Assembly (NCBI GenBank): GCA_964477375.1
Contig: CAYZFH010000001.1
Span: forward strand, 3,367-50,437
DNA: 47,071 bases
Direction: 5' to 3'
Origin: an uncultured Rhizobiaceae bacterium
GTDB taxonomy: Bacteria; Pseudomonadota; Alphaproteobacteria; CADEGL01
The position numbers and the translations under genes are program-made. Of this stretch, positions 18,934-24,482 are shown in pieces. The notes beneath the pieces were generated by a model. The model saw only the letters and a program-made list of their open reading frames with translations, was not told the origin of the DNA and made no database searches. Every line of letters starts with the position of its first letter. Position 1 is the first letter of the stretch.

Positions 18934-20901
18934 ATGTCCCATATCGTCATCATCGATGACCGGGTCACCAACCGGAATATTCTCGTCAAGCTGGCTCAGT
19001 CGCTTGATAAGAACGTCGATGTGCGCGCCTTCGCCGATCCGCGTGCGGCGATCGAATGGTTCGCCGACCACACGCCGGATCTGGTCATCACCGACTACAA
19101 GATGCTCAGCATGGACGGCGACGCCTTCATCCGGCAGTTCCGCCGCCTGCCGTTCTGCTTCGACGTGCCCGTCATCGTGGTCACCGTCTACGAGGACCGC
19201 GATTTCCGCTACCGGGCGCTCGAGGCCGGCGCCACCGACTTCCTTCTGAGCCCGGTCGACCATCACGAGTTCCGCGCCCGCGCGCGCAACCTTCTGACCC
19301 TGCGCCGCCAGCAGGAGATCATCCGCAAGCGCGCGCTCACCCTCGAGCAGAAGTTGCGTACCTCCGACCGGCTTCACAAACAGGCGCTTCACACCAGCGC
19401 CGAGTTGCTGCGGCTCGTGGTCGGCAGCGTGCCCGCGATGATCAGCGCGGCCGACGAGGAAGGGCGCTGCATCTTCATCAACGACTATCTTGCGGATTTC
19501 TTCGGCGTCGATCCTTCCGCCGCCATCGGCCAGACCATGGGCGAGCTGTTCGGCGCCGACTACGGCGTCCGGCACGCGGATTACGGTCGGCGCATCCTGG
19601 CCGACGGAAAGCCCTTGGCCGGCATCGAAGAGGCCTTGAACGACCGGAACGGACGCCCGGCCACGTTCCTCACCACCATGGCGCCCCTGCGCGACGCCAC
19701 GGGCCGTATCTCCAGCATCGTCTCGGTATCGCTCGACATCACCGACCGCCGCGCGCGCGAGCGCAACCTCAACGAGGCCTCGGCGCTGGTGAAGGTCACG
19801 ACCGAGGCGATGGCGCAGGGGCTGATCGCCGTCGACGCCGAGATGACCATCCTGATCGCCAATACGCGCGCGGCGCTTCTGCTCGACGTGCCGCCTTCGA
19901 TGCTCCAGCCCGGACAGGATTTCCGCAAGGTCGTGGCCTATGGCGTCGCGCGCGGCGACTACGGCCCGATCGGCGCGGACGAGATCGCGCGCCGCTATCT
20001 TCAGATGAGCCGGCGCAGCGCCACCTTCGCCATCGGTCGTCCGGAATCGAATGAAGTCGCGGTCGAGGTGCGCGGCAGCCCCATGCCCACGGGCGGCGCG
20101 GTCCTGACCTTTACCGATATCACCGAACGCAAGAAGGCCGAGGCCGAGATTCTGATCGCGAAAGAGAACGCCGAACGGGCCAGCCGCGCCAAGTCGGAGT
20201 TTCTCGCGCATATGAGCCACGAGCTGCGCACGCCGCTCAACGCCATCATGGGCTTCTCCGAGCTGATGAAAAGCGAGGTGTTCGGCCCCGTCGGCAGCGA
20301 CCGGTACCGCGAATATTGCGCCGACATCTACAACAGCGGCGCGCACCTTCTCAGCCTCATCAATGACATCCTGGATTTGTCCAAGATCGACGCCGGCAAG
20401 GCCGAGCTCGAGGAATCCAGCGTGGACGTTGCGGCCTCGATCGAGAACGTGTTGCGCCTGGTGCGCATCCGGGCCGAGGAAGGCAAGGTGCGGCTTGAGG
20501 TCGACGTTACGATGGGCTTGCCGCTGATGCGGCTGGACGCGCGCAAGTTCAAGCAGATCCTGATGAACCTGGTCTCCAACGCGGTCAAGTTCACGCCCGA
20601 GGGGGGGCGCGTGCGGATCGGCGCGCGCCTGGGTCCGGACCAGGCCATGCTGATCGAGGTCGCCGACACCGGCATCGGTATCTCCGAAGAAGACTTACCC
20701 CGCGTGGTCACCCGCTTCGGCCAGGTGACCGGCGAGCATGCGCGCAAGCATGCCGGCAGCGGCCTTGGCCTGCCGCTGGCCATCGAGCTGACCAAGCTGC
20801 ATGGCGGGCAGTGCGAAATCTCGAGCCAGGTCGGCGTCGGTACGGTGGTGACCGTGCGCCTGCCCGGAGAGCGGGCTGAGCTGCAGGCCCATATCGCCTA
20901 A
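18934..20901 (+). CDS. Sensor histidine kinase with N-terminal receiver: REC-PAS-PAS-HisKA-HATPase
   Basis: 655 aa. REC (IIDD...DLVITD54YKMLSMDG...SPV), two PAS-like segments, H-box [21 protein letters not shown] and a G-box GSGLGLPL. It ends 30 nt before the next kinase gene on the same strand. Confidence 0.85.
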
Positions 20902-20931
20902 TACGCGGAAAGCGGCGATGGCGTTCGCGCG

Positions 20932-23463: not shown

Positions 23464-23513
23464 CGGCGGGAGCCGCCCGGCCCCCGCCCGCTCAGCCTTA
23501 GTTGCCGCCAGCT

Positions 23514-24482
23514 TCAGTTGCTAATGGAAGCCCAGCGCCGGTCCTGCGCCGCGGCCAGACGCTCCATCTTCCGCAGATCGCTGTTCTCGAGCGTCAGCGC
23601 CGTCTCGACCCACAAGTCGGTGACGTCCAGCAGCTCCTGATGCGAGACCGGGCTGACCATGCGGCGCACCTTGTACACCGCGCGGTGGGCATTGAAGCTG
23701 CGGTCGCGCTGCTCGACGAAGTCATAGACCGCTTCCTCGCCCTGGCCATCCGGCGCGACCACATCGATCACGTCCAGCGCCTTCAGCTCCTCCGCGGAAT
23801 AGATGCGTCCGGACAGGATCATTTCCTCCGCGCGCGCCGGGCCGATGCGGCGGCCCAACAGGCTGTAAGCACCCATGCCGGGGAACAGGTTGAACAGGAT
23901 TTCCGGCAGGCCGAACTTGGCGCTTTTCTCGGCCACGATGACGTCGGCGGCCAGCGCGCATTCGAAGCCGCCGCCGAGCGCGTCGCCCTGGACCAGCGAG
24001 ATGCTGACCACGGGCGCGTTCATGTTGATCGCCCGCGCGTACTGTACGTCGATGCAGGCATGGGCATAGCGGCGGAGGCCGGCGCGGTCCTTAGCGCGGA
24101 TCTGCTCCACGAACAGCGGCAGGTCGCCGCCCAGGTTGAAGATGCCGGGCATGCGCGACGCCATCACGACATATCGCATCGGCGCCTCGCCCGCGTTTGC
24201 GTCCTCGGCGAAGGTGGATTCGACCCAGCGCTGGGCCGTGCGCATGTCGGACAGAAGCCCCATGGTGAAGCTCGGGCGTCCCGCGGGCTTCATGTGCTGC
24301 CACAAGATGCGCGCGGGCGCGTCGAGCCGCACGTCAAGCTCGGCCAGTTGCCCGGCCTCGCCCAGTTCGGGCGCGGGCGAGGGGCGCGGCTGGATGGCTA
24401 GGTTTCCGGCGTATTCCAGTTTGCGGGACGCGGGCCGCCTTGCTGGCGCGAACGCGTGGATGGTCTGCTTGGTTTCGCTCAT
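23514..24482 (-). CDS. rpfF: RpfF-type DSF (cis-2-enoic acid signal) synthase, crotonase superfamily
   Basis: 322 aa from ATG 24482 with AAGGAGA RBS. The core IFNLGGDLPLF...ISLVQGDALGGGFE(174)...FGLPE(194)ILFNLFPGMGAYS...IYSAEEL...LWVETAL...LRKMERLAAAQ closely follows Xanthomonas RpfF as I remember it, including both catalytic Glu with identical 20-residue spacing. Confidence 0.8.
   Translation of the reverse strand: MSETKQTIHAFAPARRPASRKLEYAGNLAIQPRPSPAPELGEAGQLAELDVRLDAPARILWQHMKPAGRPSFTMGLLSDMRTAQRWVESTFAEDANAGEAPMRYVVMASRMPGIFNLGGDLPLFVEQIRAKDRAGLRRYAHACIDVQYARAINMNAPVVSISLVQGDALGGGFECALAADVIVAEKSAKFGLPEILFNLFPGMGAYSLLGRRIGPARAEEMILSGRIYSAEELKALDVIDVVAPDGQGEEAVYDFVEQRDRSFNAHRAVYKVRRMVSPVSHQELLDVTDLWVETALTLENSDLRKMERLAAAQDRRWASISN

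Follow-up and report, generated by a model that had tools for sequence, protein, structure and literature searches.

Where does a fatty-acid signal lead when the place of its usual response regulator is taken by a second sensor kinase? This question is raised by three adjacent genes on contig CAYZFH010000001.1 of an uncultured Rhizobiaceae bacterium, within the stretch of 47,071 nucleotides that was analysed here (the window). Signalling by diffusible signal factors (DSFs) has been characterised mostly in Xanthomonadales, in Burkholderia and its relatives, and in Pseudomonas, and in the best-studied systems the signal ends in the degradation of cyclic di-GMP (c-di-GMP). In Xanthomonas campestris (Xcc) the gene rpfF is convergent with the rpfGHC operon, and in Xanthomonas RpfC phosphorylates RpfG. 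The three genes in the window encode a crotonase of the RpfF clade (F), an RpfC-type hybrid sensor kinase (K) and, in the position of RpfG, a protein that combines a receiver domain (REC) with two PAS domains and a histidine kinase core (U). We think it reasonably probable that they form a DSF-family module in which the RpfC-type sensor feeds the receiver of the second kinase in place of a c-di-GMP output. To our knowledge no DSF system has a kinase in the RpfG position, and full-text literature searches found no description of RpfF/RpfC modules in Alphaproteobacteria or of such a kinase partner.

U (655 aa, 18934..20901) and K (843 aa, 20932..23463) are encoded on the plus strand, as are all of their features given below, and are separated by 30 nt. 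F (322 aa, 23514..24482, minus strand) is convergent with K, with 50 nt between them. A preliminary description of this DNA had assigned coordinates and domain architectures to the three genes, with which Pfam scans and residue mapping agree. It had further reported that HD-GYP, GGDEF and EAL domains are absent from the 47 kb, and none was found in Pfam scans of all 36 called open reading frames (ORFs) of the window. A scan of positions 18500-24900 was uninformative, with no promoters called and a terminator count that did not differ from that of shuffled sequence.

F has the crotonase fold (Pfam ECH_1, 94 bits) and had been placed with RpfF rather than with housekeeping hydratases. Profile scores, scores against PDB sequences, a neighbor-joining (NJ) tree and signature residues bear this placement out. 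Among NCBIfam models the best match was PRK08788 (366 bits, cutoff 177), while generic hydratase models reached 84 bits or less. Against PDB sequences, RpfF entries scored 180-192 bits (7zq7 and 3m6m, the latter being Xcc RpfF, about 191, 5fus, which is Bcam0581 of Burkholderia, 181, and 6dgn 180), and the first match other than RpfF followed at 74 bits. In a pairwise comparison F was 43% identical to Xcc RpfF over 244 residues. Signature residues of RpfF are G86, G138, E141 and E161 in Xcc numbering (PMC9040811). All four are kept in F, where they align to G119, G171, E174 and E194, and both catalytic glutamates are thus present at E174 and E194, as had been proposed. These two glutamates were also invariant across 23 diverse crotonase homologues.

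Related loci were collected by a crotonase profile scan of one genome per GTDB species, which yielded 80 loci, almost all from Alphaproteobacteria. They derive from Acetobacteraceae, Rhizobium species, Sphingomonadales, Inquilinus limosus, Gluconacetobacter liquefaciens, Microvirga and many soil and water metagenome-assembled genomes (MAGs), and a few are MAGs labelled as other phyla. An NJ tree with its root on a generic hydratase placed F and about 80 relatives in a clade beside Xcc RpfF and Bcam0581, parted from the hydratase outgroup by a long branch, and many homologues of F carry the JGI annotation 'DSF synthase'. From these comparisons F is best described as a sister family inside the RpfF clade, not as a strict RpfF orthologue. 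It is a putative DSF-family (cis-2-enoic acid) synthase that presumably makes a diffusible cis-2-unsaturated fatty acid. That F should instead be an ordinary hydratase of fatty-acid or CoA metabolism, standing beside two kinases by coincidence, appears hardly credible to us, even though F stays under the NCBIfam cutoff for the RpfF equivalog and a gene for a GMC oxidoreductase lies divergently upstream of it in the nearest relatives. F scores about 110 bits more against RpfF structures than against any hydratase and keeps the RpfF signature residues, the crotonase gene is convergent with that of an RpfC-type sensor in 64 of the related loci, which come from several alphaproteobacterial orders and a few MAGs with labels of other phyla, and the GMC gene is conserved in three close relatives only. 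As separate observations on this enzyme family, an RpfF-clade crotonase without an adjacent RpfC-type sensor (L005:7343-9703) is found beside a single-domain receiver and an ECF sigma/NepR-like pair, the latter being general stress response components, and at another locus (P0071) a single-domain receiver is divergent from the crotonase.

Turning to the sensor, K contains the Pfam domains HisKA (aa 201-265), HATPase_c (aa 313-428), Response_reg (aa 578-690) and Hpt (aa 745-823), and the Pfam scan found no domain in aa 1-190. An arrangement of membrane input, HisKA, HATPase, REC and histidine phosphotransfer (HPt) domain, in this order, is that of RpfC (PMC4504480). The key residues of K are H211 in the HisKA and HATPase_c core (21532..22215), D626 in the internal receiver (22663..23001) and H778 in the HPt domain (23164..23400; 41.6 bits, cutoff 24.6), the presumed phosphodonor to the protein in the RpfG position. 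Both histidines had been named correctly in the preliminary description, whereas the receiver aspartate had been given as D625 and is off by one. In Xcc RpfC, DSF binds to an N-terminal sensor of 22 residues (Cai et al. 2017, PMC5391125). Residues 15-22 of it are R-A-D-S-E-H-A-Q, and DSF sensing depends on R15, D17, S18, E19 and Q22 (PMC5391125). K has the sequence NRPDSEHEQ at aa 25-33, so that the NRPDSEHE motif claimed earlier is indeed present. All five essential Xcc residues and the histidine are kept in it with the same spacing (R26-P-D28-S29-E30-H-E-Q33 against R15-A-D17-S18-E19-H20-A-Q22; 21007..21030), and the motif stands directly N-terminal to the first transmembrane (TM) helix. Strong hydrophobic segments at aa 32-58, 62-88, 135-156 and 159-189 and a weaker one at aa 95-130, as judged by Kyte-Doolittle hydropathy only, fit a multi-pass membrane input of about 5-6 helices at aa 32-189 (21025..21498).

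One surveyed locus (L077) has a canonical rpfF-rpfC-rpfG(HD-GYP) cluster, and its sensor shares 41% identity (E 1e-39) with K in the input domain. This locus is from a MAG labelled Zetaproteobacteria, and the gene upstream of its sensor encodes REC followed by HD_5/HD, i.e. RpfG. Together with the motif match, this identity supports the earlier proposal that the N-terminus of K is an RpfC-type input. Input domains of the same type adjoin the crotonase in 64 related loci, and we infer that K senses a DSF-family signal via its N-terminal segment. The motif occurs in two flavours. One, R-x-D-S-E-H-E-Q-x-x-I-R, is found in 11 of 13 loci with a kinase in the RpfG position, the window included, in the HD-GYP locus and in a few others. 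The second, R-P-D-[ST]-E-H-E-M-x-x-N-R, has methionine for glutamine and is found in 35 of 42 loci with GGDEF and EAL domains in that position. We also observed, in the N-terminal ~40 aa of the K homologues (L001-L086), that the Xanthomonas-like glutamine flavour accompanies PAS-PAS-GGDEF-EAL partners as well.

Does U then truly occupy the place of RpfG? We took as the slot protein the product of the gene that directly precedes the RpfC-type sensor gene on its strand, and submitted 56 of these proteins to a Pfam scan. Response_reg was found in all 56 and PAS_4 in 54, and the outputs fell into three types, namely GGDEF and EAL (42 proteins), HisKA and HATPase_c (13, including U), and HD_5/HD (the canonical RpfG at L077 only). 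Across the 56 proteins the REC domain was 39-98% identical to the receiver of U, with medians of 70% for the kinase type and 57% for the GGDEF-EAL type and a value of 52% for the HD-GYP type (L077), as compared to 25% and 31% for the two other receivers of the window, the one within K and that of a regulator at 14530-15138. The slot receivers are thus orthologous in 56 of 56 loci, and the placement of U in the RpfG slot, which had been proposed from gene order, stands. Gaps between slot gene and sensor gene in the related loci are frequently -4 to +11 nt, which indicates that the two genes are co-transcribed as operons. The crotonase, the sensor and the slot protein were the only genes conserved across loci.

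The kinase in the slot is recurrent and not unique to the window, and most members of the family still feed c-di-GMP enzymes. Relatives with crotonases 88%, 64% and 57% identical to F have the same three genes with REC-PAS_4-PAS_7-kinase in the slot, and a relative with a 58% identical crotonase has REC-PAS-PAS-GGDEF-EAL there. A complete genome with a kinase-type locus is OZ244931.1 (L013), and among cultured species the GGDEF-EAL version is carried by Gluconacetobacter liquefaciens DSM 5603 (L038), Inquilinus limosus DSM 16000 (L040), Roseomonas aerilata DSM 19363 (L050) and Aureimonas altamirensis (L073). The closest named relatives of the window proteins are MAG proteins that bear no more than the label 'PAS-domain containing protein [Alphaproteobacteria bacterium]' or 'crotonase/enoyl-CoA hydratase family protein'. 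Two NJ trees without bootstrap, one for the crotonase and one for the REC-PAS_4 region, were similar in shape. In them the kinase-type loci form several basal groups closest to the HD-GYP outgroup and enclose a small PAS-PAS-GGDEF-EAL group, and the large GGDEF-EAL group stands apart. The parallel trees suggest that the module was inherited as a unit and that its output was exchanged more than once. Judged by these sequences, the family is widespread in Alphaproteobacteria and uncharacterised, and a kinase output is its minority form (13 of 56). At two loci, a second ORF with an RpfC-like input plus kinase, in two pieces, was seen between the sensor and the REC-PAS protein (L030:11567-13445 and L040:11677-13669). 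L040 is from Inquilinus limosus DSM 16000 and L030 from a related genome that is listed, probably wrongly, as Mycobacterium sp. KBS0706. A tandem duplication, a remnant of an rpfH-like gene or a frameshift could account for the additional ORF.

U itself consists of Response_reg (aa 4-117), PAS_4 (aa 165-274), PAS_7 (aa 291-403), HisKA (aa 419-488) and HATPase_c (aa 535-645). The preliminary description of the gene 30 nt upstream of K as REC(D54)-PAS-PAS-HisKA-HATPase agrees with Pfam, which detected no HD or HD_5 domain and no GGDEF or EAL domain in U, its output being HisKA and HATPase_c. D54 is the acceptor aspartate and H429 the histidine of the H box. The H, N, G1 and G2 boxes of the output core (20188..20868) are intact in all 13 kinase-type slot orthologues, U included, which implies that the kinase core is under selection as an enzyme, and from these alignments the kinase of U is a conserved, catalytically intact output variant. 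An assignment of the core to the DivJ/PleC/PdhS family was considered and dropped, because the NCBIfam scores (DivJ 232, PdhS 220, LuxQ 217 and TorS 213 bits) were too close to each other and far below the cutoffs. Matches of the core in PDB were generic only.

A complete and conserved kinase core would also suit a role of U as an input. U would then autophosphorylate in response to PAS cues and pass the phosphate to its own receiver or to D626 of K, and the HPt domain would gather phosphate from both kinases and deliver it to a regulator elsewhere, possibly an HD-GYP protein, as in a multikinase network converging on one HPt. It is in keeping with such a network that no downstream regulator was found near the kinase-type loci and that our data cover a 47-kb window of the genome. 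We nevertheless regard it as unlikely, because 43 of 56 orthologous loci encode a slot protein without a kinase domain, whose receiver can only accept phosphate from the adjacent sensor. The receiver of U is 52-78% identical to these kinase-less slot receivers, so that the same direction of flow, from K to U, is the simplest reading.

The PAS region of U (19426..20142) bears on a different possibility. PAS_4 is found in the slot proteins almost irrespective of their output (54 of 56), whereas PAS_7 is present only in the closest clade, and U might thus sense the fatty acid directly through PAS_4 as a second, cytoplasmic receptor. There are precedents for this, as RpfS of Xcc binds DSF through a PAS_4 domain (PMC4159695) and RpfR of Burkholderia binds the Burkholderia diffusible signal factor (BDSF) through a PAS domain (PMC4504480). 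On the other side, the PAS region of U gave no match to the RpfR PAS structures in PDB, its best PAS match being BvgS (E 8e-8). Since the PAS domains of RpfS and RpfR are themselves dissimilar (PMC4159695), sequence similarity cannot decide the matter. We give direct sensing by PAS_4 a small chance, and it would be compatible with a relay from K to U.

The gene identities, domain architectures, motif conservation and slot orthology given above are direct observations, and the relay from K to U that we favour can be pictured from them as follows. F would make a diffusible fatty-acid signal, presumably a cis-2-unsaturated acid, which K would detect through its R-x-D-S-E-H-x-Q segment and multi-TM input. 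K would then autophosphorylate at H211 and relay the phosphoryl group to D626 and from there to H778. The HPt domain would in turn phosphorylate D54 of U. This last transfer is suggested by slot orthology: slot proteins of the GGDEF-EAL and HD-GYP types lack a kinase, so that their receivers must be fed by another protein, most obviously the adjacent sensor, and the receiver of U is orthologous to them, so D54 should likewise be fed from H778 of K. In most relatives the receiver-PAS protein ends in GGDEF-EAL and in one in HD-GYP, and the signal would there change c-di-GMP levels. In U, the phosphorylated receiver and cues perceived by PAS_4 and PAS_7 would together determine how far a second histidine kinase acts as kinase or as phosphatase, and this kinase would act on a response regulator. 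In sum, a relay from kinase to kinase would convert the quorum signal into a phosphorylation output instead of c-di-GMP turnover. In its most complete form, which we put forward only tentatively and would not be surprised to see revised, a DSF-type signal would drive a six-step His-Asp-His-Asp-His-Asp relay in which the RpfC-type sensor phosphorylates the lysine-less receiver of a PAS-gated second kinase. Population density and an intracellular PAS cue would thereby be joined into phosphorylation, not c-di-GMP turnover, and the same receiver-PAS adaptor would be fitted with a kinase, GGDEF-EAL or HD-GYP as interchangeable outputs in a widespread, uncharacterised alphaproteobacterial DSF-like family.

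Several points weigh against this relay and have to be set beside it. With the NCBIfam equivalog model for RpfF (NF053515), which ranked second, F scored 230 bits and did not reach the cutoff of 550. As F lies below this cutoff and has its own model in PRK08788, its signal may differ from known DSFs. The related loci, moreover, have a sensor motif in two flavours, of which the window has the Xanthomonas-like one, and the two may reflect different ligands. The RpfS and RpfR precedents are a further complication, as the signal could enter through PAS_4 of U as well. We infer the product of the crotonase, ligand binding, the phosphotransfer steps and the final target from sequence, and from 47 kb of the genome, elsewhere in which an HD-GYP protein or other acceptor may lie. 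A search for a partner response regulator with an iterated REC hidden Markov model, covering all ORFs of 14 kinase-type loci, found none that was conserved within 8 kb. The REC-GerE regulator at 14530-15138, the only regulator in the window, was rejected as a partner of U, since it is paired with a MASE1 kinase of its own and conserved only in the closest relative (L001).

The last of these points concerns the receiver of U (18943..19284). A lysine in strand beta5 is present in nearly all receivers. Alignment to the PleD receiver places Ser106 of U at this position (FLLSPVD in U, FLTKPID in PleD; aa 105-107, 19246-19254). Serine is nearly invariant there in the 55 alphaproteobacterial orthologues, and the HD-GYP protein of L077 has arginine. 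Without this lysine the receiver may not act as a standard phosphoacceptor switch. It could then be a pseudo-receiver that works by protein contact, perhaps with the sensor kinase or the crotonase; RpfF is contacted in this way by the RpfC receiver in Xanthomonas and by RpfR in Burkholderia and Cronobacter. Apart from the loss of the lysine in nearly all 55 orthologues and its exchange for arginine in the HD-GYP protein, however, the receivers look like active phosphorylation sites. D8, D9, D54 and T84 are kept in U and are invariant or nearly so across all 56 slot receivers. Phosphorylation of D54, as the relay from K to U demands, is hence still likely, though the switch mechanism may be unusual, and we consider a pure contact function distinctly unlikely.

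How does the locus compare to known systems? With RpfF, RpfC and RpfG of Xanthomonas it shares an RpfF-clade synthase with the same catalytic glutamate pair and glycine residues, a convergent hybrid sensor with an N-terminal R-x-D-S-E-H-x-Q segment, multi-TM input and HisKA-HATPase-REC-HPt order, and a gene for a REC-containing partner directly upstream of the sensor in the same operon. It differs in that the output of the partner is PAS_4-PAS_7-HisKA-HATPase and not HD-GYP, so that U has only the receiver and the position in common with RpfG and lacks the HD-GYP domain that defines the latter. It further differs by having no rpfH and no adjacent rpfB, by a crotonase that belongs to PRK08788 and is 43% identical to Xcc RpfF, and by its host, an alphaproteobacterial MAG. 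The RpfF (Bcam0581)/RpfR systems of Burkholderia and Cronobacter likewise have an RpfF-clade synthase (181 bits between F and 5fus) convergent with a PAS-containing signalling protein, and the PAS-GGDEF-EAL architecture of RpfR recurs in the slot of most alphaproteobacterial relatives. RpfR, however, has no receiver, binds the fatty acid directly and works without an RpfC-type membrane sensor, whereas the window and its relatives have a receiver before the PAS domain and an RpfC-type sensor that is always adjacent; the window, in addition, has a kinase and no GGDEF-EAL.

Other kinases linked to DSF signalling resemble single parts of the locus. RpfS of Xanthomonas (XC_2579), compared here by description, is like U a cytoplasmic PAS_4 kinase tied to DSF signalling with no clear DNA-binding partner. 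It is a 955-aa hybrid kinase with a C-terminal receiver encoded away from the rpf cluster, whereas the receiver of U is N-terminal and its gene occupies the place of rpfG. In Pseudomonas aeruginosa PA1396/PA1397 an RpfC-like membrane input sends a DSF-family signal to an output other than c-di-GMP, so that there is a precedent for such an output from a DSF-type sensor. PA1396 has no HPt domain, its target is a DNA-binding regulator, and neither an adjacent synthase nor a second kinase is involved (PMC4504480), while the window has all three, i.e. HPt domain, adjacent synthase and second kinase. The relay itself may be likened to that of double sensor kinases. Those of the TodS/TmoS type have the order PAS-HK-REC-PAS-HK (HK, histidine kinase) in a single polypeptide without an HPt step. 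In TodS a His-Asp step likewise precedes a REC-PAS-HK module and the first kinase feeds the receiver of the second module; the relay in the window would differ by spanning two proteins and by running through an HPt domain.

Beyond the three genes, the surroundings of the module in the window are varied. At 14530-17164 on the minus strand, a MASE1-PAS-HisKA-HATPase kinase (15131-17164) overlaps by 8 nt with the REC-GerE (LuxR-type) regulator mentioned above (14530-15138). The two form a separate two-component pair, 1.8 kb from the module and conserved only in the closest relative (L001). On the other side (24683-29250), the GMC oxidoreductase gene is divergent from the crotonase gene and is followed by a 120-aa ORF (26403-26765, plus strand), a GH17 glycosyl hydrolase and ExoD. 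None of the GMC, GH17 and ExoD genes was counted as part of the module, as they occur beside the crotonase only in L001, L003 and L007 and represent a lineage-specific context; they might be a lineage-specific target or serve to modify the signal. Further away, at 587-5166, lies a likely phosphonate biosynthesis cluster, with a phosphoenolpyruvate mutase fused to an NTP_transf_3 domain (1728-3395, minus strand), a thiamine pyrophosphate-dependent enzyme resembling phosphonopyruvate decarboxylase (587-1747, minus strand) and a divergent AMP-binding enzyme (3094-5166, plus strand). The latter is the only such enzyme in the window and was considered as an rpfB candidate, and because it is located 18 kb away beside phosphonate biosynthesis genes it was not counted as part of the system. 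At 42673-46400, an RTX calcium-binding repeat protein with nine HemolysinCabind stretches (42673-44214, plus strand) adjoins a large-subunit catalase with a Catalase_C domain (44268-46400, minus strand).

With the window and 80 related loci, RpfF/RpfC-like pairs prove to be common in Alphaproteobacteria. The partner of their sensor is a conserved receiver-PAS adaptor whose output has been swapped in evolution among HD-GYP, GGDEF-EAL and histidine kinase. If the relay proposed here is true, the kinase version would be a natural example of a sensor kinase feeding another sensor kinase, and fatty-acid quorum sensing would reach a new bacterial class, with a transcriptional or phosphorylation output there.

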